Source: a virus
Virus record (IMG/VR): IMGVR_UViG_3300020048_000026
Span: 90,854 to 154,853 of that record
Direction: 5' to 3' (one strand)
Length of the DNA: 64,000 nucleotides
Shown in pieces: positions 617 to 53,929 of this stretch; position 1 is the first letter of the stretch; every line of letters begins with the position of its first letter. The position numbers and the translations under genes are program-made. Below the pieces are notes generated by a model that saw only the letters and a program-made list of their open reading frames with translations, made no database searches and was not told the origin of the DNA.

Positions 617-1141
617 ATGGAAATCAATAAAGAAAATATTTATAAATTAGAAAATGCCTCTGATGTTAAAAAATTTATCATTGGTGGTAAAGCCATACTG
701 ACTTTAGAAAGTACAAAAACTGGTCGTTGGTTTACATATAAAATCAAAAAAGCAAAGAAAGATGATGAAAAATCACCTTTTTTTGTATCAGTATTAACTG
801 GTGGTGATAATGAATCAGCCTATACGTATATGGGTACGATTTTTAACAATGATAGATTATCATTCAAATTAACAAAAAATTCTAAAATTGGTGAAGATGC
901 TTTATCATATAAAGCATTCAATTTCTTTTTTAATTTACTTATCAATAATGATAAACTTCATTCTGAAATGAATGTTTATCATAGAGGTATTTGTGCTGTT
1001 TGTGGTCGTCCATTAACAACTCCAGAATCCTTAATAATTGGAATTGGTCCTATTTGTGATGGTAGACTTGGAAAACCTATTGAAATTAAAAAAGTTCGTA
1101 AGAAAAAATTACAAATGTTAAACCGTAAATTGGTAAAATGA
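617..1141 (+). CDS. DUF6011-like zinc-finger phage protein, C-terminal RKxKL tag
   Basis: CAVCGRPLTTPESLIIGIGPIC motif; ends VRKKKLQMLNRKLVK. Confidence 0.7.
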   Translation: MEINKENIYKLENASDVKKFIIGGKAILTLESTKTGRWFTYKIKKAKKDDEKSPFFVSVLTGGDNESAYTYMGTIFNNDRLSFKLTKNSKIGEDALSYKAFNFFFNLLINNDKLHSEMNVYHRGICAVCGRPLTTPESLIIGIGPICDGRLGKPIEIKKVRKKKLQMLNRKLVK

Positions 1142-1470
1142 AAAAATTTGATTTGAGTACCGTAGAGGTGAGTAGTCTAAGTTCAGATGATATAATTGAA
1201 TTAAAACGATATTTGAAAACTATTTCTGTAAGAGCATGTGTAAACTTTATTTTACATGTTATGGACACGGAATATACTTTATCTGAAATAAATAAAAATA
1301 ATGATAAAGTTGAGAAATTCATAGCAGATAAGCAATTTGAATATCTTAGATATGTTATTATGCGGGTATCTGATGATGATTTTAGTGAATCTGAATGGAT
1401 TCAAATAGAAAGAGAACACACAGTAAAACAAAGGAAAGAAAAACTATCTAAAATTAATAAAAATGCGTGA
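1138..1470 (+). CDS. Hypothetical protein with C-terminal RKxKL tag
   Basis: ATGA-type overlap in operon; ends QRKEKLSKINKNA. Confidence 0.7.
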   Translation: MKKFDLSTVEVSSLSSDDIIELKRYLKTISVRACVNFILHVMDTEYTLSEINKNNDKVEKFIADKQFEYLRYVIMRVSDDDFSESEWIQIEREHTVKQRKEKLSKINKNA

Positions 1471-1873
1471 ATGTAAAATAACAAATTATATTATAAGAGC
1501 AATTAGTGTATTATTTTTAATCTTTTTTGCCGTCACTTTTAAAAGTTGTAAAGAAGGTAATAAAGAACATAAACGATTATGTACAGTGCTTAAACACTAC
1601 CAGTCTAATACCGTACATAAGGGTAGTGTTAATGATAATTTTATTTTAATATTGAAGGTTAGAAATGATACTACATTTAAAAATACTTTTGATCTTGATG
1701 TTTCCCCTTCAACTTATTATGATTGTAAAGATGGTGAAAATTGGTATTTTTTCCTTAGGGACGAACAAATTGACTCTTCAAAAAATAGAAATATGATGGA
1801 AATGTTTACGACAATATCACTTATGCTTGGAATAGTATTATTAGTTGTAAGTTTTGTGGATTTTGAGGATTAA
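1463..1873 (+). CDS. Membrane protein (two TM segments)
   Basis: Hydrophobic N- and C-terminal segments; operon overlap. Confidence 0.65.
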   Translation: MRECKITNYIIRAISVLFLIFFAVTFKSCKEGNKEHKRLCTVLKHYQSNTVHKGSVNDNFILILKVRNDTTFKNTFDLDVSPSTYYDCKDGENWYFFLRDEQIDSSKNRNMMEMFTTISLMLGIVLLVVSFVDFED

Positions 1874-1880
1874 AATAAAC

Positions 1881-1921
1881 AAAAAAGTGTTTTTTATCTA
1901 AAAATAAGAAACACTTTTTTT
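1881..1921. repeat. Inverted repeat AAAAAAGTGTTT...AAACACTTTTTT (hairpin/terminator overlapping an AAC-N18-TA element)
   Basis: Arms read directly from the intergenic gap. Confidence 0.5.
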
Positions 1922-2128
1922 ATGCCTTTTTGGAAAAAATTATTGATTGATATTATATTTATTGCAATATATTATATTTTTTATAAAGTTATCGGATTTG
2001 AATTGACTGTTATTATAGCATTAGGACAGATATTATCAACTATCTTACAAAAAGATTATCATAAAAAATCATTACCTCCTCCAACTAGTACTTACCGATT
2101 TCAGCAAAAAGGAAAAGTAAAATTTTAA
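1922..2128 (+). CDS. Small membrane protein
   Basis: 68 aa with two hydrophobic segments. Confidence 0.6.
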   Translation: MPFWKKLLIDIIFIAIYYIFYKVIGFELTVIIALGQILSTILQKDYHKKSLPPPTSTYRFQQKGKVKF

Positions 2129-2129
2129 T

Positions 2130-2810
2130 GTGATAGAATTATTTAAGCATCAAATAAGAGCATTTAACAAAATTATTAATAATGATAAAAATTTCATATT
2201 TTGGCCTCGTCAATATGGTAAAAGTCATTTAATCTCAGCTTATTTAGAACATTTTATTAATAATAATTCTAATCAAAATATTTTATTTATTTGTTATGAA
2301 AAAAATTATATTAAGTATTCTAAACAGAAATTATTAAATGATATCGGATATTTGACTGTAGATAAACACCGTACTGATGATCTATATTTTATTAATGATA
2401 ATTTTTTGAAGTTTTGCTCAATAAAACAACATTTTGATACTATATCAGGTATGTTTAAAACTTTATCTCCATCATTGATAATTTTTAATGAGGTTTATGC
2501 CTTAAGTACTAATAATATTCAAAGATTATATAGTAACAATTTTTTAAATGGAAAAATTTTATATACATCAAGTTTCATTGATATACAATTAATAAAAATG
2601 TTAGATTATAATAATGATTTTTATATAAACATAGAACAACCTGTTGATAAAATAGATACTTTCGGATTATTTAAAGATGATATTAATCTTATTTATTTTG
2701 ATATAAAAGAATTGAATTATAAACCAGATGATTTACTATATTTTTCTGATAAAGTTTATCAAAGAAAAATAAAATTAAAAAAAATAAATACAATTTCAAA
2801 TGGAATCTAA
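2130..2810 (+). CDS. Degenerate terminase-large-subunit-like ATPase fragment with RKxKL tag
   Basis: LFKHQ adenine-binding motif, WPRQYGKS Walker A, LIIFNE degenerate Walker B; only 226 aa, no nuclease domain; ends YQRKIKLKKIN. Confidence 0.55.
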   Translation: MIELFKHQIRAFNKIINNDKNFIFWPRQYGKSHLISAYLEHFINNNSNQNILFICYEKNYIKYSKQKLLNDIGYLTVDKHRTDDLYFINDNFLKFCSIKQHFDTISGMFKTLSPSLIIFNEVYALSTNNIQRLYSNNFLNGKILYTSSFIDIQLIKMLDYNNDFYINIEQPVDKIDTFGLFKDDINLIYFDIKELNYKPDDLLYFSDKVYQRKIKLKKINTISNGI

Positions 2811-3072
2811 ATGTGGACTTTGCGGAAGATTAAAAGAATTAACATTTCATCACTATATACCAAGAACATTACATACAAATAAACTATTTAAAAAGATGTA
2901 TAAAGTTGAATTTATGAAAAGTCATGGTATTGATTTGTGTGAAGATTGCCACACTAATATTCATAAATTTTTTAGCGAGAAGGAACTTGGTAGAAATTTT
3001 AATGATAAAGTTAAACTTCTTTCAGATGAAAGAGTTAGAAGATTTATAAGATGGGTAAAGAAGCAGGATTAA
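2800..3072 (+). CDS. Small HNH-family zinc-binding nuclease-like protein
   Basis: CGLCGR...TFHHYIP...LCEDCHTNIH. Confidence 0.7.
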   Translation: MESKCGLCGRLKELTFHHYIPRTLHTNKLFKKMYKVEFMKSHGIDLCEDCHTNIHKFFSEKELGRNFNDKVKLLSDERVRRFIRWVKKQD

Positions 3073-3554
3073 ATATTTGGATCTTGAATATTATCATTTA
3101 TTAAAGACTTGATTTGCTCTAATAATTCTTTTCTAAAGGTATATTTATTTCCAGTAGAATTAACATATCCAATATTTAATAAAGTTTCTAACTGGCTATT
3201 ATCTATGTTAAGTTCTATTGAAGCATCATCGGAGTAGATACTTATCACTGAGTTAATTTCAATTTGATTGTTGTTGTACTGAATAGGTGAATATGATTGT
3301 TGTGTTGGTTCAGTATAACTATTACCTTTTATATTTTTAACAATTTCTGATGCTTCTTTTAAACTTGGTCTAGTTGTTTCTGCCCAGAGATAACCTAATA
3401 TAATAGGTAATCCTGAAGTGAAATATACTGCAAGTGCATATAAGTCTGCTTTTAATAAAATAGCAAAGATTGCTAATCCTATCCAAACAGATAATACTAA
3501 GTATGTTAATTTTAATCTTCTACTTGACGACATTTTAAATTTATTTATAGCCAT
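3069..3554 (-). CDS. Two-TM membrane protein (possible holin-like)
   Basis: Two N-terminal TM helices; late-type motif at 3561-3569. Confidence 0.55.
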   Translation of the reverse strand: MAINKFKMSSSRRLKLTYLVLSVWIGLAIFAILLKADLYALAVYFTSGLPIILGYLWAETTRPSLKEASEIVKNIKGNSYTEPTQQSYSPIQYNNNQIEINSVISIYSDDASIELNIDNSQLETLLNIGYVNSTGNKYTFRKELLEQIKSLINDNIQDPNI

Positions 3555-3572
3555 AATTGGTATATATAAAAA

Positions 3573-5321
3573 TTATAAAATTTTTTCTTCTTCAATAGTT
3601 GAAAAAGACATTTTTTTATAAATTTTTATAATTCTATCAAAATAATTGATACCAAATGCTGAATTATCTGTAAAATAAACCTTTGGATCTAAAATTATAA
3701 TATTAAGATTAAACTCTTTTGTGAATTTTTTTAATACTTTCAAAGCGTATTCAACATTTTCTGGCTCCATACTTGAAAAAACCTCATCTAAAAATAGTAT
3801 ATTTAATTTTCTAAATTTCAGTATCAATTTCAAATAAGAAAGTGCAATTGCAATATTTATTTTTTTACTTTCACCCATAGATAAACTTTCTGGATGTACT
3901 TCATTTGTTAATCTTTCAAAGATATTAACATTAAATTCTTCATCTATTCTTATGTTATAAGGCGATTTTAATTCATCTAAAATATCTTTCAGATAAACAT
4001 TAATAGGCTTTACAATATTTTTTATTATACTTTTTCTAACTCCTTTATTACTAAATACTTCTTTTAATTCTTCTTGAATTTGAATATTTTTATCTATTTC
4101 ATTGATTTTATTAGAATTTTCTATATTTTTTGATTTGAGTTCATTAATATTTTTAGTGAGTTCATCAACTGATATATCATTTTTTGTTTCTTTTAATTCT
4201 CCAATTTTTTTGGTTATTAACTTCAGGTCATATACTAAATTATTTAGTGTCATATTAGTACTATTCTTCTGTTTTAAGATAGTTTCTTTTTGATTTGATA
4301 ACTGTGTTAGCTTTAAAAGTATCTCATTCTTATTCTTATCTAATTCATCCATTTTTTTGATTAATTCATCTTGTTTTGAATAGATATCACTTAAATCATG
4401 TAAATGTTTTTCATCACTTAAATTTGTATTACAAAGTGGACAGATACCTGATTCATAGACTTTTAGTTTTTCTTGTATATTTCTAAAATCCACTTTTATC
4501 TCAATAATATCATTTAAGATTATATTTTTCTGATTATCAAAATCTTGGCGTTGTTTTTCTAATTCAATTAACTTTTTATCAAATTCTAATATATCACTTT
4601 TTAGTTTAATATAAGGTTCTTTTTTAGTCATTTTTTCTTTTTCTAGATTTTGAATTTCTAATTCTTTATCTAAAATACCAGTTCTTTTTATAGTTATGAT
4701 ATTTTGATTTAATGTATTAATAGTCTGTGAATTGGTTACTATTATAGTTTCATATCTAATTTTTTCTTCTTTTTGTTGTTTTATCAAACCGTTAGTTAGG
4801 TTTAGATAATTATCTAAATCTTGAAGATTAAATAGTTTGTTTATAATATTTCTTTTTTCTTCTGGTGATAAATCTATAAAGTTTGCAAAATCTGAGACTG
4901 ACATTGAAATAAAACTTTTGTAAGTTTCAAAATCAAATCCTATAACCTTATCTCTATCTTCTTTTTTGAAATTTTTGAATTTTTTGGTTTCATCACTATC
5001 ATTAATAAAAATTTTCGCATTGGTGGGTTCTAGATTTCTTTGAATTTTAATACTATCTGATAGATTGTTAATAAATTCAATTTCAGTTTCTAAATTTTTA
5101 TTAATTCTATTTGGTAGGATTGCTTGTGGTACTCTTTTTCCATTTTTTCCCCGAACTATACCGAATATAGAAAAATCAAATGATTGTTGAAATGAAGATT
5201 TACCAGCGCCATTTTGACCTGATAGCAATATTAAATTACCAGAAGTTGTGCTGAATTCTACTGTTTGTTTGTTGTGGCCAAAGGATTTGAAATTTTTAAG
5301 CGAAATGGATTTTATAATCAT
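3573..5321 (-). CDS. SbcC/Rad50-like recombination ATPase (T4 gp46-like)
   Basis: LKNFKSF, Walker A GQNGAGKS, central CPLC zinc hook in coiled coil, signature LSMGE, Walker B LFLDEVF. Confidence 0.93.
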   Translation of the reverse strand: MIIKSISLKNFKSFGHNKQTVEFSTTSGNLILLSGQNGAGKSSFQQSFDFSIFGIVRGKNGKRVPQAILPNRINKNLETEIEFINNLSDSIKIQRNLEPTNAKIFINDSDETKKFKNFKKEDRDKVIGFDFETYKSFISMSVSDFANFIDLSPEEKRNIINKLFNLQDLDNYLNLTNGLIKQQKEEKIRYETIIVTNSQTINTLNQNIITIKRTGILDKELEIQNLEKEKMTKKEPYIKLKSDILEFDKKLIELEKQRQDFDNQKNIILNDIIEIKVDFRNIQEKLKVYESGICPLCNTNLSDEKHLHDLSDIYSKQDELIKKMDELDKNKNEILLKLTQLSNQKETILKQKNSTNMTLNNLVYDLKLITKKIGELKETKNDISVDELTKNINELKSKNIENSNKINEIDKNIQIQEELKEVFSNKGVRKSIIKNIVKPINVYLKDILDELKSPYNIRIDEEFNVNIFERLTNEVHPESLSMGESKKINIAIALSYLKLILKFRKLNILFLDEVFSSMEPENVEYALKVLKKFTKEFNLNIIILDPKVYFTDNSAFGINYFDRIIKIYKKMSFSTIEEEKIL

Positions 5322-5325
5322 ATCT

Positions 5326-5354
5326 ATTATATGTAAATATGATTAAAAAGTTAT
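5326..5354 (-). promoter_or_regulatory. AAC-N18-TATA promoter-like element upstream of gp46
   Basis: ATAAC-N18-TATAAT on minus strand; same spacing at six other replication/accessory operons. Confidence 0.5.
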
Positions 5355-5373
5355 TAAAAATTTAATTTATAGT

Positions 5374-6423: not shown

Positions 6424-6440
6424 AAGAAAAAAAGATAATC

Positions 6441-14868: not shown

Positions 14869-15639
14869 ATGGAAGAAAAGAAATTTTTTGATTTTACAAC
14901 TAACAATGAATTTAATTTGAATGAAGAGTATTCAACTTTATTTAAAGATGAACAATTTAAAAGATCAAATCCTAATGAGGAAAAACTAAGAGATGCTGAA
15001 AATATCATATCAGAATTGGGTGCAAAATATGTTGAAGGATTATCTTTACAAAAATATGAAAATATTTTTGTTAACCTAACAGAATTTTTAAAGAAATTCC
15101 GTATAGATTCAGAAGAAGTTACAAACTTAACTAAGGCTGATAGAGATAAAGTTTTTGGTTATGGTAAAGAATTATTCGCATCCTATCAAGAACAATATAG
15201 CAATTTATATTTCAATTTTGAACTTTCTATTAAAGAATGGAATTATATTGAACATACTTTGACTAAAAAATTGTCTTATAATGGACAAGAATTATTTAAC
15301 TATTGGGAACTTTATATGAAATTTATTGGACCTACAAAGGAAATAGCTGATAAATTACCTAAACAATTGGAAACATTTGCTCCAGTATGTTCTATTCAAA
15401 GTTTAATTTTATTAAGTCACTTATTAATGAAACATGAAGAAAAAGCTTCAACTGACAGTTTTCATTATTTTAGAACAGTATTAACAGAAATAGCAAAAAT
15501 GACTAGATTATTTAATGCATATGGTGTTATGTTAGAAAGAACTACTAATCATTTCAATAATTGGGTCAATGCATTAAATGCGATGGATGGATACAATAAT
15601 GATGAAAGGATTGATGATGGTGAGCAACAACAACAATAA
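14869..15639 (+). CDS. Hypothetical protein
   Basis: 256-aa ORF in operon. Confidence 0.7.
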   Translation: MEEKKFFDFTTNNEFNLNEEYSTLFKDEQFKRSNPNEEKLRDAENIISELGAKYVEGLSLQKYENIFVNLTEFLKKFRIDSEEVTNLTKADRDKVFGYGKELFASYQEQYSNLYFNFELSIKEWNYIEHTLTKKLSYNGQELFNYWELYMKFIGPTKEIADKLPKQLETFAPVCSIQSLILLSHLLMKHEEKASTDSFHYFRTVLTEIAKMTRLFNAYGVMLERTTNHFNNWVNALNAMDGYNNDERIDDGEQQQQ

Positions 15640-15949
15640 GAAAGAAATATTTTCTGAACTAAGATTTTTTAATTTTCGTGATAACGAAATTAAAATCGCA
15701 TCTTTGGAAAACAAAGTTGACATTATGAATGAACTCAAAACTCTCAAAATCATAGAGTTGAATGATTTTGAGAGTTTTGAATCATATGTTAATTATGATC
15801 ATTTTTTAATATTTAAATTAAATGATGAATATTATTTTTGCGAAACAGAATTGGTTCCACAACTACAAAAAGAAAGTATGATTAAAATTTTAGATTTTAA
15901 TCATCAATTAAGAAAAGATAAAATTAAAAAAATTGAAAATGAAAACTAA
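15578..15949 (+). CDS. Hypothetical protein with C-terminal RKxKL tag (true start probably about 15614-15617)
   Basis: Ends QLRKDKIKKIENEN. Confidence 0.6.
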   Translation: MRWMDTIMMKGLMMVSNNNNKKEIFSELRFFNFRDNEIKIASLENKVDIMNELKTLKIIELNDFESFESYVNYDHFLIFKLNDEYYFCETELVPQLQKESMIKILDFNHQLRKDKIKKIENEN

Positions 15950-28896: not shown

Positions 28897-29646
28897 TTAC
28901 ATTTTTTGAAAAAATAGAGTATTCATTGTCACTATTAATTGCAGTTCTTCCGCTGTCAAATTAGGTAATTTATCTAATTTATATCTATTTTTTATAGATT
29001 CATAAATAGGTAGTATATTTTTTAATGTTGCTACATTAATTTTAAATGTACCTTTTCTAAATCTATCCCAAATACCTTGATCAGGTATACCATGTAGGTC
29101 TGCTATTATTTGTGTTTCTAAATGCCAAAACCACATTTTTTTACATTCAATGTTTTCACATATCTTTTTAACATCCTTTATTGTTTCTTCTGTCGTTTCA
29201 AATTCATAATGATCTAATAATAAAGTGTCACATTTACCTTTATATGTCCTTGCATCACAACATATTATGTTTGCTTTTTTGAATAGAGATGGATTTACTT
29301 TTTTATGATAATCAATAACATCTTGACTTTTTTCTAAAACTGTTAGTGATTTTACATTTGTATTGTTTAATAACCAAAATTCACGTGCTGCAAATCCTAA
29401 ACCAGTAGCAATAACATTTCCACTAGCAATATAGTAATGTGAAAATAATTGTGCAGCCTGCATATGATCTTTTTGATATAGCATCCATTGTTGCCCGTGA
29501 ATATAGAGAGCATGTGTACCATTCTCAAATTTTTTAACTTCAAAAGCCTTTATTGGTCCAGTTGGGCCAAGTGTTTTGATATTATTATCTTCTATAATAT
29601 CAAAATTTGGTGGATTATAATTGAATAATTTTAATACCTCTAGCAT
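28897..29646 (-). CDS. Class I SAM-dependent methyltransferase (spermidine-synthase-like)
   Basis: VIATGLGFA, LTVLEKS.DVI, IICCDA, CDTLLLD. Confidence 0.7.
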   Translation of the reverse strand: MLEVLKLFNYNPPNFDIIEDNNIKTLGPTGPIKAFEVKKFENGTHALYIHGQQWMLYQKDHMQAAQLFSHYYIASGNVIATGLGFAAREFWLLNNTNVKSLTVLEKSQDVIDYHKKVNPSLFKKANIICCDARTYKGKCDTLLLDHYEFETTEETIKDVKKICENIECKKMWFWHLETQIIADLHGIPDQGIWDRFRKGTFKINVATLKNILPIYESIKNRYKLDKLPNLTAEELQLIVTMNTLFFQKM

Positions 29647-29993
29647 TCATTTATAATATCTATTTTTCTTAGTTTTATATCTCTCACTATTCTATCCCAT
29701 TCTTTTTTAAAACTATTTGTTGGATCATTTTTAATGTTATTAGAAACTTCTTTAACCAAATCGTTCAATTCTGGTGATGTAGTATAACGTGATATAGGAT
29801 AGATAACTTTCACTTCAGATTGTCCTTCCATTACAGGAAGCCAAATTTCTCTTATAATATAATCATCTTTTAATTCAGGATCATCAGTTAATTTATAAGT
29901 TGTCATTAAATCATGAATTGATTGTTGTGCTTGTTGCCGAGTTAATCCATTTACTGTTATTCTATAAACAATTATAATTAATTCTTTTTTCAT
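29640..29993 (-). CDS. Hypothetical protein with C-terminal RKxKL tag
   Basis: Ends VRDIKLRKIDIINEC. Confidence 0.65.
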   Translation of the reverse strand: MKKELIIIVYRITVNGLTRQQAQQSIHDLMTTYKLTDDPELKDDYIIREIWLPVMEGQSEVKVIYPISRYTTSPELNDLVKEVSNNIKNDPTNSFKKEWDRIVRDIKLRKIDIINEC

Positions 29994-32492: not shown

Positions 32493-33040
32493 TGATAGAT
32501 ATTTATACGGATTGTGCAGGTTCAACTAATATTCAAGGAATATCAGTTTTTATCATGAATGGTGATAAAGAAAAAGTTTTTAGATTTAGAACTGATACCA
32601 AACAACTAAATAAAGAATTTAGTTGTTCAGAAAAACTCAATAAGACCATTGTTGGAGAAGGTTATGCAATATATAAAGCATTATTGTATGTAAACCAAAA
32701 AAACATAAATGAAAAAGTAAGAATTTATACTGATAATCAAGGTATGTTTTTTTATTTAACTAAACTCTGTCCGATTAAGAGAAAATTAAAAGGTACAATA
32801 ATTGATGTTTTAACAGAGAAATGTTTATCATTAATGACGGATAATATTGAAATTTTGTGGATAAAGGCGCATGTTGGAGTTTATGGAAATGAAGTTGCAA
32901 ATTTTGAGGCTACAATAGCAAGAAAAAGAAAAAATTGGAATGCTACTCCTGTTTTCACTATTAAGAAAAAAATAACAGAATCACAACCAATTCATTTTCA
33001 ACTCAACAAATTTTTAGAATCAATAAAAAATATATCATGA
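32492..33040 (+). CDS. Ribonuclease HI-like protein
   Basis: IYTDC (cf. YTDG), GEGYAI, IYTDNQ, WIKAHVGVYGNEVA. Confidence 0.85.
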   Translation: MIDIYTDCAGSTNIQGISVFIMNGDKEKVFRFRTDTKQLNKEFSCSEKLNKTIVGEGYAIYKALLYVNQKNINEKVRIYTDNQGMFFYLTKLCPIKRKLKGTIIDVLTEKCLSLMTDNIEILWIKAHVGVYGNEVANFEATIARKRKNWNATPVFTIKKKITESQPIHFQLNKFLESIKNIS

Positions 33041-33450
33041 AAATTGTCAAAAAAATATATTATTATTTTATATTTCATTTCGGGTATGCATTTATTCGTA
33101 ATGATGATACTGATACTAATTTGGATATTTTACTTGTCTATTTAAATGATGTTGGAATTAGAACAGTTTCAATGGATTATCATTGGTGTACAATCACTTT
33201 TAAAGATAATACAATTTTTAAATTTTGGAATGCAAATAGATGGTATGCGTGGATGTCTCAGGGTACTATTCATTTCAGTAATGGAAAAAAATTATCTTGG
33301 AGTACTGGTATGCCTTCAAATGAAGTCTTAGTTAAATATAGTAAGGTTATTAGATTTTTAGAGAAACGACAAAAGAGAGAAGAATTTGAGAAATACTTGC
33401 CAGTTAAGGTTTTAAGAAAACAAAAATTAAATAAGTTAAACTCGTTATGA
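33037..33450 (+). CDS. Hypothetical protein with C-terminal RKxKL tag
   Basis: FWNANRWYAWMSQG; ends VLRKQKLNKLNSL. Confidence 0.7.
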   Translation: MKIVKKIYYYFIFHFGYAFIRNDDTDTNLDILLVYLNDVGIRTVSMDYHWCTITFKDNTIFKFWNANRWYAWMSQGTIHFSNGKKLSWSTGMPSNEVLVKYSKVIRFLEKRQKREEFEKYLPVKVLRKQKLNKLNSL

Positions 33451-36700: not shown

Positions 36701-37017
36701 ATTGGAATGCCTGGACCATCATTCTCTATTGATATATGATCTTTTTCTACATGAATTTTAATATATTTAACTAATCCAGTTCTTATATAGTGATCAGAAG
36801 CATTAGTTAATACTTCATCAAATAATTTGATAAATCCTGCATTATATTCTACAGTTTTATAATTGAACTTGCTTCCTTTAATCTCGTTTATATCTTCAAA
36901 TACAAACATTTTGGTTGGTTCTGTATATACATTTCCAATGTACATACCTGGCTTCTTAAGTATATGTTCTTTATGTGTGAGTTTTTTATATCGTTCTTCA
37001 ATAGTTTTTTTAGCCAT
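33727..37017 (-). CDS. Type IIA DNA topoisomerase, single-chain ATPase+TOPRIM+cleavage fusion
   Basis: EHIL.KPGMYIG, DEVLTNA, NDGPGIP, GGTHGLGVKL, TEGDSA, PLKGK, DMDTDGSHIKGL, YYKGLGT, DGLKPSQRK, YHHG, SASRYI (catalytic Tyr). Confidence 0.96.
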   Translation of the reverse strand: MAKKTIEERYKKLTHKEHILKKPGMYIGNVYTEPTKMFVFEDINEIKGSKFNYKTVEYNAGFIKLFDEVLTNASDHYIRTGLVKYIKIHVEKDHISIENDGPGIPIEMHKEHKMYVPELIFGNLMSGENFDENDQRMVGGTHGLGVKLTNIFSTKFTIETSDGKKKYCQTFTDNMDKKTKPSITKSSKNLTNITYYPDFKKFDLVEITDEIQSIFLKRAIDIAAYSPGVKVYYNNILIPIKTFKDYMRMFINDEEELFYEKINENWEIGIARSPNDMFQQISMVNGISTHVGGTHVNYISNQIVKLLGEKIEKLNKGVNVKQAMIKNHLFLFLSCRIPNPSFETQTKENMTTRMVGDLIKDIEVSENFIKKLSTSEIKNDIVNFATIKEFQEAKKSTQNGQKVKVRIAKLDDANKAGKIPDNMKCHLFLTEGDSAASTAKRGFSVTGNDYFGLFPLKGKPLNVRDITLQKMRENEEISNIISALGLEFGKKYTSTRTLRYGKIVIMSDMDTDGSHIKGLVLNIFDTYWPELLEMDFIYEFITPIVKIEKGTKVKYFYRLSDYKKWKTENTESGYFIKYYKGLGTIEPKEAKLFFKDIAKHLIRFNASDIKKERDMIDLAFNKKRVENRKEWLLGYKPGVELDKFKTKQTYDLFFNNEFIEFSMADNIRSIPSIMDGLKPSQRKILYTLFKRNFKNEVKVELLMGSVLEQSAYHHGPQSLESTIIGLAQDFTGSNNINLLNPKGEYGTRGKGGKDASASRYIFTKLASLTRDIFKEDDDEILEYLIDDGYSVEPKYYVPIIPMVLVNGSDGIGTGWSSYVPEFNPIDIINYIENKIKKTKKNIVLEPWFKGFKGEIISDIDNGRYISRGIFKRLPKNRLNILELPILIWNEKYYEFLNKLIDEKYIKDYDKYCTDTDVNIIVSLPEENLQNVTDEMIIKKFNLESYINMNNMNLFDENGKINSYKDQYEIIDKFIELRINYYDLRKKNSLQKLEDQKKYTVNKMKFINCVLKKEIVFENKTKESIIKQIEAKNIEMYKDSYDYLLNISLISLSKDKLEDLKLSYDKIKLEIEKITQITTIDMWLTELEDLKKKIKIN

Positions 37018-37252
37018 TCAATTCTATTTTTTTTAATTTTTCTTTTCTAATTTGTTTGTAATAATCTGTATCTTCTGCATAAATGTATTGTCTATGACCA
37101 TATTCACCTAATGATGATAAGTAGATAACTAAAACATCTTTTTCATTATCTGGTGAATGAGCAGGAATAAATTTATCAATATTTATATGAGTATCAATAT
37201 GTTTATTATACCAAAAATCTTTTCTGGTGGATTTAAGTATCTTTATTACCAT
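37010..37252 (-). CDS. Hypothetical protein with C-terminal RKxKL tag
   Basis: Ends QIRKEKLKKIELNG. Confidence 0.65.
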   Translation of the reverse strand: MVIKILKSTRKDFWYNKHIDTHINIDKFIPAHSPDNEKDVLVIYLSSLGEYGHRQYIYAEDTDYYKQIRKEKLKKIELNG

Positions 37253-37703
37253 TTAATTTTTTTAATTTTAATTGTCTAATATATTTTTTAGGATTATTAT
37301 CGTATAATTTTCCAGCAACATTATAGAAGTCAATTTCTAAGAGAAAATCCTGAATTCTTGTTTTTTGAAGTGATTTAATATCTAAGAAATTTTCCTTGTA
37401 CTTATATAGTATTTCACCAGTCATAGGATTTACACATGTTGTCATATTTTCTAAATACGTTGTTGGAATATTCTCAATTAGATAAGTGTGAACATTCTTT
37501 AAAAATTTTGGAAGTTTGTTTTCTTTTTCAAGTACTGCTGTATATACATTAACATATATTTCTTTTCCTTCTAAATCTCGTTTCAGTTCTAATTGATAAG
37601 AAACTTCATCTTCAATATAGGGTATCAAATATCTAATATCACTGAACACACTTTCTATAACAGGTCTCCATTTTTGAATAATTTTATTTCTATCTGTTAA
37701 CAT
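37233..37703 (-). CDS. Hypothetical protein with C-terminal RKxKL tag
   Basis: Ends YIRQLKLKKLNGNKDT. Confidence 0.65.
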   Translation of the reverse strand: MLTDRNKIIQKWRPVIESVFSDIRYLIPYIEDEVSYQLELKRDLEGKEIYVNVYTAVLEKENKLPKFLKNVHTYLIENIPTTYLENMTTCVNPMTGEILYKYKENFLDIKSLQKTRIQDFLLEIDFYNVAGKLYDNNPKKYIRQLKLKKLNGNKDT

Positions 37704-38232
37704 AACAATTTATTTGTATTAATTTTTTCTTTCTTATATCTAAATCAATTCTTTTTTTCAAATCAATTAGAGTAATTGTATAATCTCTACCCTCTATTCT
37801 TCTATACCATACTCCTGTATTTAAATTTCTACCACTTGGTATACCTGATATTTCTTTGTGATGAAAAATTTCATTATTTTGAAAATCTTCTAATTTTTTA
37901 CAACCTCTTGGTATAGTATTAAGTGAATCGTGTACTAACTTACCATCAATATAGAACCAATTACTTGTTCCCTGAAAAAATGCTTTAGGATCATCACAAT
38001 GTTTAATTAAAGCCGCACCATATAAATTATGTAGAACACCTTTTTCTAAAAAATATTCATAACCATCAAATAATAAGTGACTTATATTTTTCTTGTTTAG
38101 ATCTAAATATTCATATAATGAATAAAAATCATTAAAATCTTTTCTATATAGTTTAGTAGATGATGTTTCCAAACTTAGAAAATCTCTCCAGGATATTTTA
38201 CATTCTTTCTCACCGAAGTTATACATTATCAT
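37690..38232 (-). CDS. Hypothetical protein (one MORN-variant-like G.LH..G.A.I...W..G unit) with RKxKL tag
   Basis: GVLHNLYGAALI...WFYIDGK; ends DIRKKKLIQIN. Confidence 0.65.
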   Translation of the reverse strand: MIMYNFGEKECKISWRDFLSLETSSTKLYRKDFNDFYSLYEYLDLNKKNISHLLFDGYEYFLEKGVLHNLYGAALIKHCDDPKAFFQGTSNWFYIDGKLVHDSLNTIPRGCKKLEDFQNNEIFHHKEISGIPSGRNLNTGVWYRRIEGRDYTITLIDLKKRIDLDIRKKKLIQINCYVNR

Positions 38233-38876
38233 AGTTTTGATAGTTTTTTTAGCTTCTCTTTTCTGAAAATCATAGACATTTCATTTAATTCATCTTTTGT
38301 TATAATTTCATCTTGTGTCATATAATGATCACGCATACCAGAACAAGCAGTTAAAACAATAGGTACAGGTACAGTATCAGAAAAAGTATATTTAGATAAT
38401 TCATTTTGTCTTGCTTCATAATTAATACCAAATTCTTTATTAACAGAATATTCAGGTGATGAAATAACAACCGCTAAAACTGGAGAGTTTTTATATACTA
38501 CATTTAATGATTGACATAATTCATCATATTTAGCATCGGTAAGATTAAATTTTTGCCATCTATCAAGTAGAATGTTTTGAATTTTATCATGATCAAACCA
38601 AATTCTTCTATCTATTTTTTTTAAATGTTTTATTAGAGTTAGTCTTTGTCCAGTAGAAAAATTCTCTAAAAGATTTGTTGGTTTAAAACTATAATTATTC
38701 CAATTTTTTTGTGCTTCAACTCTATCATATAAATATAGTAATTCTGGAAATTTTTCACAAAATTCATAGTATTGATAGACCTTTGCTTTACTATTTTTTT
38801 CTTTCTTCTTTTTGAATTTCATAATGGAAAGGTCTTTTATAACTTTCAATAATTGATAAAAAGGTGAATTCATCAT
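38229..38876 (-). CDS. Hypothetical protein with C-terminal RKxKL tag
   Basis: Ends IFRKEKLKKLSKL. Confidence 0.65.
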   Translation of the reverse strand: MMNSPFYQLLKVIKDLSIMKFKKKKEKNSKAKVYQYYEFCEKFPELLYLYDRVEAQKNWNNYSFKPTNLLENFSTGQRLTLIKHLKKIDRRIWFDHDKIQNILLDRWQKFNLTDAKYDELCQSLNVVYKNSPVLAVVISSPEYSVNKEFGINYEARQNELSKYTFSDTVPVPIVLTACSGMRDHYMTQDEIITKDELNEMSMIFRKEKLKKLSKL

Positions 38877-39316
38877 GATTTTTCTATTTTTTGTAATTTT
38901 AATTTTCTTAATTCTTTAACACTTATGAAATTGTCTTTAACAACTCTTAAAGGAACTGTTAACCCACCAGATTTTTGAAATGTAATAATTGTATTTTGTT
39001 TACTTTTCTTTTCAACTTCCTTCCATGTTAGAATTTCATTACCAAATCCAACAACTCTATCCGTTTTCATTAAATGTTTATATTCCTTTTTTGAGACTTT
39101 TTTACCATTCCAAGCATATATTTTCTTAAATGGTGTTTCTCCTCTCGCATTATTTACTCCAGAAATAGTATATCCTTTTTTGTGCCAAACAGCATCAATA
39201 GTATATTCTTTAATTTGTTTGCTTTTGATATATTTTAGAGAGTTATTAAATAATTCATCTTCATATTCAATTTCTTTAGGTAGAAAAATCAGTTTTAATC
39301 CAGGTTTATATTTCAT
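38873..39316 (-). CDS. Hypothetical protein with C-terminal RKxKL tag
   Basis: Ends ELRKLKLQKIEKS. Confidence 0.65.
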   Translation of the reverse strand: MKYKPGLKLIFLPKEIEYEDELFNNSLKYIKSKQIKEYTIDAVWHKKGYTISGVNNARGETPFKKIYAWNGKKVSKKEYKHLMKTDRVVGFGNEILTWKEVEKKSKQNTIITFQKSGGLTVPLRVVKDNFISVKELRKLKLQKIEKS

Positions 39317-40947
39317 ATTTTTAATTGTTTTATTGCTTTTTGCATATATTCTGGTATAATATGTGAATTATATTTCAATAAATCGGAGAAGTTTGAATCT
39401 AAAATAAACATATCTGCTTGATCTGTATCAGACCTAACCGCTCGTCCATAAGATTGTAATGTATCAACAACAGTTTTCCAAGTATACCAATCCTTATTTG
39501 ATTTTTGTCTTGATTTTATTTTATTTGATGATATATTTGGATATGGAACTTTTAATAAAATTTGAAATCTTGCTAAATCATCTTTTAAGTCTATTCCACT
39601 CATCATAGATGGACTTACAAGAACTGTTGGGGTTGTACTATGTATATGTTTTTCAAGTATTTCATTTCTATCTTCAGTTTCATGAAAAAGTAATCTATCA
39701 TTTGTGATATTATCTTTTATCCAATCTGTTATTTCATAATTAGTTGTGTGTATAATTCCTTTACTATCTTTATATTTTGCTAGAATTTTTTCTATCCAAG
39801 GTATTTGTTTTTGAAATGTTTCTTCTTTTGTAGCCCAATTCATTTTACCAACTTTCATATAGAATATTTTTCTATTATTTACTGGAAATGGTGTTTCTAT
39901 TTCATAATAAGTCGTAATATCTTCTTCTAATCCATTGATAAAACTAAACATTTTTTTATCTAAAATAGATGCTGACATAAAAATTATATGATCATAGTGT
40001 TTCCAAACATAATCACGAATATATTCATATACCCAAACATGTTGTGTTATTAGTTCAGTACCAGAATACATTTTATCCGCCTTATTAATGAATACATCAA
40101 GAACTATATTTTCAGGATCATTTTTATAAGATTCAAATAAGTGCTTGAATGATAATAATTTACCTTCTATATTTTGTAGAAAATTACTTAATTCTATTTT
40201 CTTTTTTGGTGCAGAATAACCAAGTTCATTTTCAAATTGTGCCTTTTTTTCTTCAAGCATAGGTATCAATTTTCTTTCAAGAAATTCAAGATATTTATTC
40301 ATATATTTGATCTTAGAGATAAATCTATCATCAAGAGTTTCTATTTCTTTTAAATTAAATCCACATTTTTTTAAAGTTTTTGCACTAACTTTAGTAGATA
40401 AGAAATCACTATAAACAGATTCAAAATCATGACTTTCATCAATAATAAGAACATTTGCACCTCTACTATTAAGTGTTGATGTTTGATATAAAGATAATGT
40501 ATTGAATAAATGAAAATTTGTTAGTCCTATATCACCGGCTAACCATTTATTTTTTGCAATATCATAAGGACAAGAATCACAAGGTGATTTAAGAATTTTA
40601 CATAATTCTTTTCCATTACCACAATCAGTATCATATTTATCACAATAATAATTTGAACGACCTTTATAGTTGTTTATAAAATCAAAATCTCTTAAATATT
40701 GTTGTTGTAAAACTTTTGAATTTGTTAAAATATCAAATTTCGCTTTATCATTTACAAAATTTTTGTACCAGTTACAAAACATTGCGACTGATATAAATGA
40801 TTTACCTGTTCCTGTTGGGAGGTTAAGTAAAATATATTTCTTTTTTGTCATTATTGATTTTTTAATAAAATCAAGTGCTTCTATTTGATATTGTTTTGGT
40901 TCATATCTTATAGGAAAATATATTTTTTTGTTATTTATTTCTATCAT
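39313..40947 (-). CDS. DinG/XPD-family SF2 helicase
   Basis: PKQYQ, LPTGTGKS, Cys cluster (C..C...C..CPY), IIDESH, MSAS, GIDL, KVPYP, QSYGRAVR. Confidence 0.9.
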   Translation of the reverse strand: MIEINNKKIYFPIRYEPKQYQIEALDFIKKSIMTKKKYILLNLPTGTGKSFISVAMFCNWYKNFVNDKAKFDILTNSKVLQQQYLRDFDFINNYKGRSNYYCDKYDTDCGNGKELCKILKSPCDSCPYDIAKNKWLAGDIGLTNFHLFNTLSLYQTSTLNSRGANVLIIDESHDFESVYSDFLSTKVSAKTLKKCGFNLKEIETLDDRFISKIKYMNKYLEFLERKLIPMLEEKKAQFENELGYSAPKKKIELSNFLQNIEGKLLSFKHLFESYKNDPENIVLDVFINKADKMYSGTELITQHVWVYEYIRDYVWKHYDHIIFMSASILDKKMFSFINGLEEDITTYYEIETPFPVNNRKIFYMKVGKMNWATKEETFQKQIPWIEKILAKYKDSKGIIHTTNYEITDWIKDNITNDRLLFHETEDRNEILEKHIHSTTPTVLVSPSMMSGIDLKDDLARFQILLKVPYPNISSNKIKSRQKSNKDWYTWKTVVDTLQSYGRAVRSDTDQADMFILDSNFSDLLKYNSHIIPEYMQKAIKQLKI

Positions 40948-41708
40948 TAAAATTTCCTTTCTTTTTCCATTCTTTTTAAGCAATCATAAGGCGTTTCATT
41001 CTTTTTCATTTCATAAGAGCAACCAGTAGTTCCACCTTTCCATGAACCTTTTCTTTCTCCTATATCATCTGAAAATTGTATATCAATAACTCTACGAACA
41101 AATTTTGTCCAAGATAACCATTTGAACCATTTCCATCTCCATTCTCTTTCAACTATATTTATTGTTGCTGTACAATATTGTATCTCTCCTGATTTAGTTG
41201 TATATGTATAAGGGTATGATTCAGTATAAAAAATATTCCATTTATTAGTATCGTAAAAATCTTGTCTTTGACCTTTTCTTTCATGTATCCATTCATTCGT
41301 AGAATGATTAAGATAACTTGTGCGAATCCAATCTAAATCCCAAGGCATATAAAGGAACTTTATTTTATTACCGTAACAGATACATAAGCAATTTTCATGA
41401 TAATAAACACCATATCTAGGTGATTCACAATCATCATATTCCACCTTTTTATATTTCTTTTTATAAGAAATGTTTTTACCAGATAGTTTATTTAATTTTT
41501 CAGTTCTTAGTTCTTTTATATCAGGCTTTATTTCTATTTTTCTGTAATGTTTCCATGGTAAATATAGAAATAATTTACCCCAGATAAAGTATATCATTAA
41601 TATAGGTTTTGGTTCAAAGTAACCTGCTAATTCATAAATTAAATGAAAGCCTGACCAACCAGGTGTAAATTCATACCATGATGTTTTGTATGTTTTATGT
41701 AGTTTCAT
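40947..41708 (-). CDS. Conserved Trp-rich phage protein with internal RKxKL motif
   Basis: IGERKGSWKGG; internal ELRTEKLNKL. Confidence 0.7.
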   Translation of the reverse strand: MKLHKTYKTSWYEFTPGWSGFHLIYELAGYFEPKPILMIYFIWGKLFLYLPWKHYRKIEIKPDIKELRTEKLNKLSGKNISYKKKYKKVEYDDCESPRYGVYYHENCLCICYGNKIKFLYMPWDLDWIRTSYLNHSTNEWIHERKGQRQDFYDTNKWNIFYTESYPYTYTTKSGEIQYCTATINIVEREWRWKWFKWLSWTKFVRRVIDIQFSDDIGERKGSWKGGTTGCSYEMKKNETPYDCLKRMEKERKF

Positions 41709-48909: not shown

Positions 48910-48922
48910 AATAATATAATTA

Positions 48923-51900: not shown

Positions 51901-52372
51901 AAATATACAGCAAAATACTAATAATACTGTATATGCATCAAACAATGTTGCTGTAAATAATCAGATTTTTAGATATAATGGTGTATATGAACCTATATTT
52001 GTAGATGTGCCTCTATTTAATAATACTTACATATACTTATCAGGTGTAACAAATAAATACTGGGAATCAAATTATAAGTTTGATACTTCGTATGAAAATT
52101 TTGGTGTTATTGAAGAACTGATATTCTCTAAGGTTAACCCAAAAATATCACCACTTAAATTAAAAAACACAGATACTGATAAATCAATCTATCCAATGGT
52201 TGATGAGTTTGGTTATCAATTTAGTTATAGATTTATTTTTAATTCTTCTTGGGATAAAGATTTTTATATTTTAACTAGTCCTGATCAAAATGTAAATAAA
52301 AAAACATTTGCGACTCTTGCAAATTATCAAAATATTATTGCAGCAGCACAAACAATAAATAGTCAATCCTAA
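48923..52372 (+). CDS. Large probable virion structural protein
   Basis: 1149 aa, co-transcribed with 45679; many SGxT motifs. Confidence 0.6.
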   Translation: MINKSFQLLRANPALTTNVKLVVDTDYKLYLESFDSNSQLSDQKYKHFRISKNHLYEEIVTRFYDGLLSQLAFDVKYDSDDTTVFTTYDHQFDDTYWSGAKSIEDKWFKHDYEYLAPLFIKKGSIPEGFVVLRVDEATPYEENGNEFNVTKLTKDNFYTQIVDKWKCVNFYDMRYQSDFGFFLSKNFIENTRFPENAFELNFTKYEYSKFYGIDYDNGVYATKSKFLQDILYYEQPHFRLEKEILNTFRDNSLIFPHILNIKFIFSDVPATPDNVKNYSLNRYYGFYIDKLDFITNLTSYVTPELKPGLTLKNNIFMDGTVESIESPFVEGFEPDKTYWLHYNDDFYQVIKVLESGKYVYKVISDFDMSGITLTNFNDRTCFINYQEGYNYRCKTIQNPSGYTNYISGFTSNFQIDPYYDNGNIETMYGDLYLIDIDGSFHVLKKRGLDYFVQSDYAINSYPTFLEYWKGGKSSKYYISKPIYKYGEKPMVYPVYRLKFSDIKDFDFNRVNTHFSDFEYEKDTYHSTQEHKLYATDYTDKSVLNKNFMVHARGEDGQYQIMNVSSEYIADDELYEVEFNDLKDIWRKNQSVVKWGFAGSNSNCDYPYKLNNSIDIGDIYNRTCNIKMSFPKEIEKNLDYFYRIGNFLSGNTLGTSGLTLRYLNQTTNIETDLMENFSKKFNLDLYLNSEVDYFDYFFKNKSYFTIDDINYIKPTNKYSTFQSGDKYTPSTTLFKGLNINILPVDSISRDTYGKITDIIYNNNKNFNGYKFAIILNDVYDYFDANTHVGLNENGLSGNTVIDNSVNAIHVFLNDKFKNVLIVINIRIPMQQKLINLNNVPVFGEKFGLYTTRRLDVKKFTYPLSASTVKQYDSDLISAANFIDAFDDMNTLSEFESGITFYYVNSTGEFGSTGPINIFNSGNTMVSVTNWNKVDPPFILTINDPQILETKPQSYIKEAIKGPSTNIYDKYKTYYTGDERQNINVTEPLARTMKLNIQQNTNNTVYASNNVAVNNQIFRYNGVYEPIFVDVPLFNNTYIYLSGVTNKYWESNYKFDTSYENFGVIEELIFSKVNPKISPLKLKNTDTDKSIYPMVDEFGYQFSYRFIFNSSWDKDFYILTSPDQNVNKKTFATLANYQNIIAAAQTINSQS

Positions 52373-52376
52373 ATAT

Positions 52377-53102
52377 ATGAAAAGTAATTTAATGTTAAAA
52401 AAATTTAATACAACTACTGTTCCTGGAACAATGAATCAAAAAGAACTAAGAACTTTTTTTGGTGGTAAAATGGTATATACCGAAGATAATATTTTAATAA
52501 ATGATGATTCTATAAAATTTAGTCAAGTTATCGGAAACTATAACAATGGATATCAATATTTTGATGGTGATACTATTCCAGATGAGTGGGAAACTACTTT
52601 TTCAGAAAATTTAGTGGATTTGAAATCCAATAATCAAACAATATCTTTATTAAGTCAATCTACAACTAATATGACAAATAATACTAGATGGCAAATAACT
52701 ATAAATGGTACCTCAATATTAAGAGATTACTTATTTTTCAGATTGAAAGAGCAAAGAATTTTTAAAATGATAAATGCAGTAGAAACATATTCAAATAATA
52801 TAAATAACGCTATTTATGATTATATTAATAATAATATTATTAGTAGATATAGATTAGTAAATGTTAATTTTTATGTTGAATATTATGATATTAAAAAACA
52901 ATCTATTTATAATACAATAAAATTACAGTATAATCCAAAATTTACTTTAGAAGTATTTGATAGTGCTAATCTTACTAATGTTAATATTGTTGGATTTGAT
53001 CCATATAAATATGATTCAATAAATATACAATACAATCAATCTAAGCCTTCTAATCAATATACTTTTGATTATTATTTTGATCTAAATTTCTCAAAAATAT
53101 AA
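52377..53102 (+). CDS. Probable structural protein
   Basis: 241 aa, same late operon. Confidence 0.6.
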   Translation: MKSNLMLKKFNTTTVPGTMNQKELRTFFGGKMVYTEDNILINDDSIKFSQVIGNYNNGYQYFDGDTIPDEWETTFSENLVDLKSNNQTISLLSQSTTNMTNNTRWQITINGTSILRDYLFFRLKEQRIFKMINAVETYSNNINNAIYDYINNNIISRYRLVNVNFYVEYYDIKKQSIYNTIKLQYNPKFTLEVFDSANLTNVNIVGFDPYKYDSINIQYNQSKPSNQYTFDYYFDLNFSKI

Positions 53103-53150
53103 ACAAATATAGATTTATACGATATATAAATAAAAAATAATGGAATTTTC

Positions 53151-53618
53151 ATGTCTGAAACCGAAGAAAAAATAGAAGAAAAAGATTCAAGAAAAGAGAT
53201 ATCAAAAAAAATGATAGAATCAACAAAACAATGGAAATCAATTGTTAAAGATTTGAGCACAAGATTAAGAGGTGATGTAAAATATGTAATTGATATTCAA
53301 TCAGAAGCAATTAGTCATCGCCAAGATGTTGTAGAAGAAATAAGAACTTATAGCATTAAAATTTATAAATTAGTTCAAAAAATGAAAGTTTTAACAAAGG
53401 CGAGATTTGAATTTTATGCAACATCATACCAAGTTAAAACATCTGGTACGGAAAAATTAAAATTAATAGAAGCAGATTTATCTGAATATCAATTATTTAT
53501 AAATGAGTTAGATGAGCATGTATCTTTTTTAAGAGAAACATCTAAAGATTTGGATTTGATAAACTATTCTGTTAAAAATAAAATAGAGTTAACAAATATT
53601 TTAGGAGGTTATAAATGA
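53151..53618 (+). CDS. UvsY-like recombination mediator
   Basis: Helical 155 aa, RFEFYA, LIEADL, INYSVKNKIEL C-terminus; upstream of UvsW as in T4-like phages. Confidence 0.6.
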   Translation: MSETEEKIEEKDSRKEISKKMIESTKQWKSIVKDLSTRLRGDVKYVIDIQSEAISHRQDVVEEIRTYSIKIYKLVQKMKVLTKARFEFYATSYQVKTSGTEKLKLIEADLSEYQLFINELDEHVSFLRETSKDLDLINYSVKNKIELTNILGGYK

Positions 53619-53929
53619 TAAACAATGTGTCAGTTGGTTATCCATCATCTATGATTGGTGATATTGATATACAGAAATATCGCATTCGATCTGTTTCTAT
53701 GATTTCAGAAGCAACTTGGACTCCAAGAATTATTATTACACATTTTGATGGTAAAGAATTTTATTATTCATTGTCAAGATTGTATATTGAAGATTTAAGA
53801 GCACAAAAGATAGATGTTACTAATCAAATAATTTGGAATCATATTAAAAAAGAATGTGCTGTCTGGTTAAGAAGAGAGAAATTAGAAAAAATAAATTCAT
53901 TAGAATTTATTGATATACAATTAAGTTAA
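53615..53929 (+). CDS. Hypothetical protein with RKxKL tag
   Basis: WLRREKLEKINSL near C-terminus. Confidence 0.65.
   Translation: MINNVSVGYPSSMIGDIDIQKYRIRSVSMISEATWTPRIIITHFDGKEFYYSLSRLYIEDLRAQKIDVTNQIIWNHIKKECAVWLRREKLEKINSLEFIDIQLS

Follow-up and report, generated by a model that had tools for sequence, protein, structure and literature searches.

The DNA analysed here (the window; 64,000 nucleotides) spans positions 90854-154853 of one viral contig of 154,853 bp, IMGVR_UViG_3300020048_000026 (working label G000), with a G+C content of 26.6%. The completeness of this contig was estimated at about 22% by CheckV, so that G000 represents only part of a far larger phage genome. Its products include a single-chain topoisomerase II, UvsW, an SbcC/gp46-like ATPase and ThyA. 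The only relatives found in GenBank were 'uncultured phage' records of 630-735 kb, with 23-28% identity, and a megablast search of GenBank phages with the locus gave no match. The subject of this work is a short C-terminal motif of the window's smaller open reading frames (ORFs), here called the R-tag.

A C-terminal motif shared by small proteins

The motif was scored as R-x-x-K-[LI]-x-x-[LI] (R..K[LI]..[LI]) within the last 28 residues of each protein, position 0 being the Arg. Twelve C-terminal motifs had been listed in an initial annotation of the window, and a six-frame scan placed all of them in named ORFs, 3-11 residues before the stop (Table 1). Contig-wide, a C-terminal match was carried by 29 of the 217 ORFs, about one protein in seven, when 0.53 were expected from shuffling whole proteins and 0.93 from shuffling the last 28 residues only; the highest count reached in 2000 shuffles was 5. 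Internal matches were at chance (5 seen, 4.1 expected). The C-terminal enrichment proposed in the initial annotation was thus found, and the motif was not equally frequent at internal positions. Moreover, R..K..K ranked first in an unbiased scan for gapped triplets in the last 20 residues (23 versus 0.9 expected, p = 2e-25), level with a different tag, KYNL. The R-tag is real and far beyond chance.

The sequence logo in G000 is [L/I/F/V/E/Q]-R-K-x-K-L-x-K-[L/I]-[N/E/S], with Lys also enriched at position -3. The motif is followed by 2 to 19 residues before the stop (mode 3), and these trailing residues are variable. At C-termini, R..K (n = 31) was more frequent than K..K (n = 13), despite a threefold excess of Lys over Arg, and the K..K matches include several register shifts of true tags; the Arg at position 0 is specific and is no generic basic residue. 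On a helical wheel, R0, K3, L4 and L7 share one face with the hydrophobic residues at -4, -1 and +10/11. The tails of G000 combine this hydrophobic stripe with a mean net charge of about +4.2.

The R-tag and the other tags of the phage occur on different proteins, as the initial annotation had claimed. None of the tagged proteins of G000 was among the 45 carrying KYNL or an N-terminal M..F[EN] (6.0 expected, p = 7e-4), and in the relative G003 only 4 proteins combined the R-tag with capsid-type tags (21 expected, p = 2e-7). R-tagged genes lie downstream of TAnnTTTG-type sites and capsid-tagged genes behind a start-proximal TATATA (odds ratio 4.6, p = 7e-6, with a crude classifier). The annotation had described the tagged proteins as non-late; the promoter association agrees with this description, which is only roughly supported and stops short of proof given the crudeness of the classifier. 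It is plausible from these upstream sites that tagged genes are mostly non-late.

Table 1. Coordinates of tagged ORFs and of other features named in the text (window positions unless a relative is given).
Feature	Position (strand)	Tag and its position
DUF6011 zinc-ribbon protein, 174 aa	617..1141 (+)	RKKKLQML, 1097-1120, 6 aa before stop
110-aa ORF, no known family	1138..1470 (+)	RKEKLSKI, 1432-1455
226-aa ORF, weak ResIII/terminase-like P-loop N-terminus	2130..2810 (+)	RKIKLKKI, 2763-2786
ORF with possible decayed tag (weak)	3069..3554 (-)	RKELLEQI (Leu for Lys at position 3), 13 aa before stop
gp46-like SbcC	3573-5321	none
123-aa ORF, no Pfam family	15578..15949 (+)	RKDKIKKI, 15911-15934
592-residue protein, N-terminal TPM-phosphatase domain (E 7e-25)	25123-26901 (+)	none
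ThyA	28059-28889	none
117-aa ORF	29640..29993 (-)	RDIKLRKI, 29661-29684
137-aa ORF	33037..33450 (+)	RKQKLNKL, 33415-33438
Topoisomerase II, one 1096-residue chain with GyrB-like ATPase, Toprim, TOPRIM_C and GyrA-like domains	33727-37017 (-)	none
80-aa ORF	37010..37252 (-)	RKEKLKKI, 37025-37048
156-aa ORF	37233..37703 (-)	RQLKLKKL, 37254-37277
180-aa ORF	37690..38232 (-)	RKKKLIQI, 37711-37734
215-aa ORF	38229..38876 (-)	RKEKLKKL, 38241-38264
147-aa ORF	38873..39316 (-)	RKLKLQKI, 38885-38908
Acb3 homologue	40947-41708 (-)	RTEKLNKL, 41484-41507, internal
104-aa ORF	53615..53929 (+)	RREKLEKI, 53870-53893, 11 aa before stop
UvsW	54384-55943	none
Tad3 (type I Thoeris inhibitor), complete (E 3e-34), relative G003	L062:12930-13514 (+)	R-tag at end of ~70-residue extension
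Extended-tag examples, relative G001 (L078-L103)	132275-132607, 254141-254449, 265694-266273	extended R-tag
Phage Clp genes (ClpC-like; ClpP, 1-3 copies; ClpS), relatives	L101:1116-3629 (-), L098:14950-15621 (-), L149:414-695 (-), L161:3224-5329 (+)	
133-residue acidic protein beside ClpP, relative G004	L278:9371-9772 (-)	

Several of the window's tails could be followed into relatives. Orthologues of the 29640..29993 product (42-52% identity) retain the tail, apart from that of G001, which in the alignment stops short of it; the G001 homologue of the 2130..2810 product likewise has no tail. The 33037..33450 and 37690..38232 products have orthologues in the relative stretches L003 and L004 that retain RKRKLKKI and RSKKLKKI, respectively, the latter at 48% identity. 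The 37010..37252 gene is the last in a run of five consecutive tagged genes, with a helicase on one side and topoisomerase II on the other. The candidate in 3069..3554 had a position-matrix score of 16.7, against 25-29 for clear tags.

Core enzymes of the window (topoisomerase II, UvsW, the gp46-like SbcC and ThyA) carry no tag, in agreement with the initial annotation. Its internal instance, RTEKLNKL, did not hold up: it lies inside a full-length Acb3 domain (Pfam, E 1e-48) and is part of the fold. This homologue of Acb3, an inhibitor of CBASS (cyclic-oligonucleotide-based antiphage signalling system), adjoins the helicase and the run of five tagged genes. The topoisomerase II is split in T4 and a single chain in G000, and its homologue in L004 appears as two ORFs. 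Relatives conserve the protein with the TPM-phosphatase domain.

Relatives, dialects and tagged heads

Tagged ORFs were counted in seven further genomes. The RK dialect is found in G000 (155 kb; 29/217 tagged ORFs, 13%), G003 (330 kb; 98/602, 16%) and G005 (143 kb; 37/233, 16%), and also in the tag-poor G001 (501 kb; 17/808, 2%). The RD dialect is found in LR745206.1 (635 kb; 131/972, 13.5%), with an RD/RE form in G004 (436 kb, 95% complete; 42/551, 8%). Two genomes were negative, namely G002 (316 kb), with a single tagged ORF among 449 (0.2%; 2.5 expected), and LR756501.1 (735 kb), with 4 among 1050 (0.4%; 5.9 expected). In the tag-rich G000, G003 and G005, the full motif was retained in 74 of the 81 orthologue pairs, at a mean head identity of about 59%, a pattern which indicates that the motif is under purifying selection in these genomes. 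Among the orthologues of tagged G000 proteins in G001, none of five retained the tail. Considered together, these two counts show that the tag is used or dropped genome-wide.

A search of 596 Gb of cellular genomes for the DNA spelling of RKEKLKK[I/L]N gave 4 matches, each of them internal; the 8 viral contigs with a match all had it at a C-terminus, near further tagged genes. As judged from these sequence searches, the tag is phage-specific. The densest array seen was in L051 (IMGVR_UViG_3300042991_000522; 10.9 kb), where 18 of the 35 small ORFs were R-tagged and 10 had KYNL-type ends.

The two dialects share R0, K3 and hydrophobic residues at positions 4 and 7. Of the tags in the RK dialect (G000, G003, G005 and G001), 65-79% have K/R at position 1 and about 45% have Asn at position 8, with tail charges of +3.3 to +4.7. 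The RD dialect, R-D/E-x-K-I/L-x-x-I/L-L, was assigned to LR745206.1 and G006 by the same measurements and to G004 by its tails. Of the tags of LR745206.1 and G006, 45-66% have D/E at position 1 and about 75% a hydrophobic residue at position 8, with the stop 2-3 residues further on; the mean tail charge is +1.6 and +2.6, respectively. Both LR745206.1 and G004 have mostly D/E at position 1 and show no dominance of Lys at position 6. The tags of G001 are extended, with a conserved Arg at -3 and +11 ([I/L]-R-x-x-R-K-x-K-L-x-K-I-N-x-x-R). In the negative LR756501.1 (L177-L213), about 40-42 of the 1050 ORFs end in D-P-Y-G-E-E-x-W-x-x, an acidic-aromatic tag unrelated to the R-tag and absent from the other six genomes checked. 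A comparison of LR756501.1 with LR745206.1 for tag swaps found few orthologues among the tagged proteins.

The tagged proteins are unrelated to one another, as the initial annotation had stated: once the tails were removed, an all-against-all comparison of those of G000 gave no significant similarity, and the 181 tagged proteins of four genomes formed 116 head families. Few heads could be named with Pfam and PHROGs. These were DUF6011 and the ResIII/terminase-like P-loop in the window, and Tad3, Pyr_excise (pyrimidine-dimer glycosylase) and DUF6794 in relatives. Tad3 and Pyr_excise are both complete domains, with the tag at the end of a further extension. The tagged Tad3 of G003 places known anti-defence proteins in the tagged class. 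The initial annotation had also suggested looking for presence or absence of the tail among homologues. In the DUF6011 family, 40 of the 120 homologues (52-80% identity) have ...[I/V]RKKKLQK[I/L]NRKL... directly after the GxGPxC zinc ribbon, and the others end at the ribbon or show decayed tails.

Structure prediction gives the tail as a helix that follows a flexible linker. In the AlphaFold2 model of the 617..1141 product, the tag lies within a separate helix (residues 157-173), preceded by a linker with a predicted local distance difference test score of about 57. The model of the 29640..29993 product has a terminal helix (residues 96-116) after a loop, with modest confidence. A search of the ESM Atlas with the tail alone gave no usable match.

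Alternative explanations and the candidate reader

Could the motif be a nucleic-acid signal, such as an A-rich 3'-end element for translation of the next gene, a promoter, the boundary of a recombination cassette or an RNA-binding site? Many tagged genes run up to or into the start of the next gene, the motif ending 1-17 nucleotides upstream of that start in 16 of 28 cases, and the Ile at position 7 is encoded by ATA in 11 of 13 cases, versus 41% genome-wide. Strong matches in the six-frame scan were nevertheless confined to the coding frame, the two other frames and the intergenic regions yielding none. The distance from the motif to the next start varied from 1 to 150 nucleotides, and 10 of the 28 tagged genes either faced a convergent neighbour or were followed by a gap exceeding 30 nucleotides, with no same-strand start within 30 nucleotides downstream, whereas the distance to the gene's own stop was tight. 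Codon use within the motif was that of the genome (AGA, AGG, CGA and CGT for Arg; TTA, CTA, CTT and TTG for Leu). At position 7, Leu alternates with Ile through codons two bases apart, the exchanges involving unrelated codons (TTA, ATA, ATT, CTA). Among 43 tagged orthologue pairs, 31-35% of the identical L/I residues at positions 4 and 7 differed in codon, similar to the flanks, so that synonymous variation was at background level. Frame restriction, spacing and synonymous variation together indicate that the constraint acts on the peptide, and on these grounds we rejected an RNA- or DNA-level signal for the downstream gene as highly improbable. The ATA bias at position 7 may be left over from TTA/ATA interconversion, or may express a slight preference at the nucleotide level. 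Hardly more credible is an origin by common descent or composition, that is, one fast-evolving paralogous family that kept its last helix, or an AT-rich codon bias that yields Lys/Leu/Ile-rich tails. The motif is indeed spelled with the genome's commonest codons, and one relative holds tandem arrays of tagged paralogues (one family of n = 16). A single paralogous family was ruled out by the lack of similarity between heads and by the number of head families, the heads being distinct folds (DUF6011 ribbon, P-loop, Tad3 and Pyr_excise), and a composition artefact by the shuffles, including those of the last 28 residues, and by G002, which is equally AT-rich and shows no tag enrichment.

At the protein level, a Lys/Arg-rich helix might bind DNA, RNA or acidic phospholipids and so concentrate small proteins at the nucleoid, the phage DNA or the membrane. 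The charge and hydrophobic stripe of the G000 tail would suit such an anchor, and the heads include some DNA-acting ones (a pyrimidine-dimer glycosylase, ResIII-like ATPases and the DUF6011 ribbon). We nonetheless consider it improbable: Arg0 and Lys3 are not interchangeable, the RD dialect keeps the same core with an acidic position 1 and a charge of only +1.6, the hydrophobic face consists of just 3-4 aliphatic residues around a central Arg, unlike the MinD and FtsA types, and LR756501.1 has a strongly acidic tail (DPYGEExW) instead. Degradation or delivery, in which an AAA+ protease or unfoldase would read the helix directly or through an adaptor, so that early accessory proteins are cleared or remodelled on schedule, is doubtful but has more in its favour. 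The tag is C-terminal, dispensable for the head and missing from virion-tagged proteins; ClpP, ClpS and a ClpP-coupled ClpC-type unfoldase occur in tag-positive genomes and in neither negative; 42 ClpP loci of low-GC phages held 80 tags (6.4 expected); and ClpS was not found in a Bacteroides control genome, so that the phage would supply its own. On the other side, ClpS reads N-degrons rather than C-terminal helices, the Hsp100 of LR745206.1 and G004 has no Clp_N domain, a helix at a variable distance from the end is unlike the ssrA or MuA-type degrons, and a degron would be costly on anti-defence proteins such as Tad3. The sub-case in which the reader is a phage-encoded ClpS/ClpC-like/ClpP machine, the one concrete candidate that emerged, is unlikely, since Clp genes are absent from the tag-rich fragments.

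The reading that we prefer is that the R-tag is a portable docking helix of about 13-16 residues for one dedicated protein reader, which is probable from the sequence evidence. Its core would be R-x-x-K-[L/I]-x-x-[L/I], in G000 in the form [hydrophobic]-R-K-x-K-L-x-K-[L/I]-N. Through a short linker, this helix would be attached C-terminally to many small accessory proteins that are mutually unrelated and mostly non-late, the face of R0, K3, L4 and L7 would dock into a groove of the single dedicated reader, and dozens of different heads would thereby be brought to the same partner. The basic character varies by lineage while four positions are fixed, which argues for a specific co-evolving protein partner rather than a charge-driven DNA or membrane anchor; we infer that a single specific protein reads the tag, with a downstream outcome. 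This outcome may be localisation or assembly on a non-proteolytic hub (a replication or transcription factory, or a scaffold), which we put forward tentatively; association with another protein partner seems rather unlikely. The initial annotation had spoken of a portable basic amphipathic helix that acts as a localisation, docking or degradation signal. The helix is portable, and is found on unrelated accessory proteins, but its basic nature proved to be lineage-specific; docking or degradation remains the best class of explanation, and charge-driven targeting to DNA or membrane fits the near-neutral RD dialect poorly.

Phylogenetic profiles were compared in search of the reader. With G002 as the sole negative, 37 candidates remained on the G000 contig, and none of the 38 families common to G001, G003 and LR745206.1 matched the full pattern of presence and absence. 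Among the 67 families common to G001, LR745206.1 and G004, a profile that omits the requirement for G003, 10 were missing from both negatives, including ClpP and ClpS. In a charge-swap screen of RK versus RD genomes, swaps were scattered everywhere, and the acidic conserved proteins of the G000 contig gave nothing useful in PHROGs.

ClpP, ClpS and a ClpC-type Hsp100 (AAA, UVR motif, AAA_2 and D2-small) were found in G001, LR745206.1, LR756502.1 and G004, which are all of the tag-positive genomes that are near-complete or largest. The [I/V]GF loop for docking to ClpP was present in the three Hsp100 proteins aligned (G001, LR745206.1 and G004). Of the negatives, G002 has no ClpP, ClpS or ClpC-like Hsp100, and LR756501.1 has only an Hsp100, without docking loop and M-domain. 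For ClpP and ClpS, presence agreed with that of the tag in 6 of 6 genomes. Patchy occurrence of ClpP and ClpS in phages is mentioned in a comparison of jumbo phages (PMC7824862). The neighbour of ClpP in G004 is a protein of 133 residues that has many Glu and some 15 Asp in a row, and a small acidic protein (95 residues, acidic C-terminal stretch) also lies beside ClpP in LR745206.1, the two being likened by acidity alone. Such an extremely acidic neighbour of ClpP could be a partner of basic tails.

Several points weigh against docking to a dedicated reader, or against its proteolytic form. Profiling and the charge-swap screen singled out no partner. The Clp correlation comes from six genomes that are phylogenetically non-independent, and no Clp gene was found in the tag-richest G000, G003 and G005, which are fragments (an estimated 20-46% complete). 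The phage ClpP, with its conserved N-terminal extension of 45 residues, may serve as a protease of the virion or prohead. The established AAA+ degrons usually lack structure and lie at the extreme C-terminus, whereas the motif is predicted to be helical and lies 1-20 residues from the end. Finally, the gene calls and the classes of promoter sites are our own and are crude.

The tag offers a handle on the dark matter of giant phages, whose genes are mostly small and unannotatable, since it marks 8-16% of the ORFs in most tag-positive genomes. It would group these unknown proteins into one functional class, that of early accessory proteins, with anti-defence proteins like the tagged Tad3 among them, and it predicts a single partner that could be fished with one peptide. 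Should the reader be a compartment, a scaffold or a phage-owned protease, the tag would reveal a hidden layer of cell biology in uncultured megaphages and provide a compact, transferable tag for engineering. The dialects and the replacement tag of LR756501.1 constitute a natural experiment in the co-evolution of tag and reader. More speculatively, giant low-GC phages may run an address code of their own, in which lineage-specific tags (C-terminal RK/RD, KYNL with the N-terminal leader, and DPYGEExW) sort the proteome and the R-tag directs early accessory proteins to a reader encoded by the phage; at its boldest, this idea would have the phage's own ClpS-ClpC-ClpP machine erase the early proteome on schedule.

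Comparison with known terminal labels

The capsid-targeting sequence (CTS) of the T4 proteins IPI-III and Alt occupies the N-terminus of late, virion-bound proteins, and the prohead protease cleaves it behind a Glu. Like the R-tag, it is a short portable peptide that is carried by unrelated phage proteins and leads to one destination, and a CTS-like leader occurs at the N-terminus of other proteins of the G000 phage. The R-tag differs in being C-terminal (1-20 residues from the end), in having no conserved Glu or [L/I]-x-E site, and in occurring mostly on non-late genes. Moreover, it is excluded from the CTS-like/KYNL proteins and has the opposite promoter association.

The encapsulation peptides of bacterial microcompartments (BMC) and the cargo-loading peptides of encapsulins are terminal helices or peptides on unrelated enzymes that are read by one shell protein. 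A terminal amphipathic helix on a poorly conserved linker is also what the AlphaFold2 models show for the R-tag. The sequence pattern is different, however, and the tagged cargo would amount to 8-16% of the viral proteome. No match to a BMC (PF00936) or Linocin_M18 (PF04454) shell gene was obtained in G000, G001, G003, G004 (95% complete) or LR745206.1. With regard to import into a phage nucleus of the chimallivirus type, no match to the tubulin family (PhuZ) was found in five genomes; chimallin was not searched for. The replication compartment that the initial annotation had offered as a destination thus gained no support, as these searches of tag-positive genomes turned up no gene (shell, tubulin or encapsulin) that could define a known compartment.

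Peptides recognised by AAA+ machines, such as the ssrA tail, the MuA-type C-motif 2 of ClpX (RRKKAI) and the XB peptide of SspB, are unstructured and very C-terminal. They resemble the R-tag in being C-terminal, portable and partly basic and hydrophobic, and phage Clp genes co-occur with the tag in six genomes. The ssrA and MuA-type degrons use the free carboxylate and the last 3-6 residues, whereas the R-tag ends 2-19 residues before the stop in G000 and is a conserved predicted helix with invariant Arg and Lys.

The membrane-targeting helices of MinD and FtsA have a broad, often aromatic hydrophobic face and tolerate K/R swaps, their binding depending on overall charge and hydrophobicity more than on particular residues. 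They are likewise short, C-terminal, Lys/Arg-rich and amphipathic; the R-tag differs in its narrow face (positions 4 and 7, partly -4, -1 and 10), in the invariant Arg inside it, and in having a sister dialect that is nearly neutral. The Rubisco-binding motif of pyrenoid proteins, reportedly described by Meyer et al. in 2020 as [D/N]W[R/K]xx[L/I/V/A], is similar only by analogy, as a short, helical, basic and hydrophobic motif, often C-terminal, that links unrelated proteins to one abundant partner; it belongs to a eukaryotic alga, and differs in motif and in having a known reader, the Rubisco small subunit.

A full-text literature search, which included the jumbo-phage comparison PMC7824862, found no description of such a tag. 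The R-tag resembles portable terminal labels and yet fails the defining features that could be tested for each family; as a C-terminal recognition helix it is real, strongly supported and apparently unpublished.

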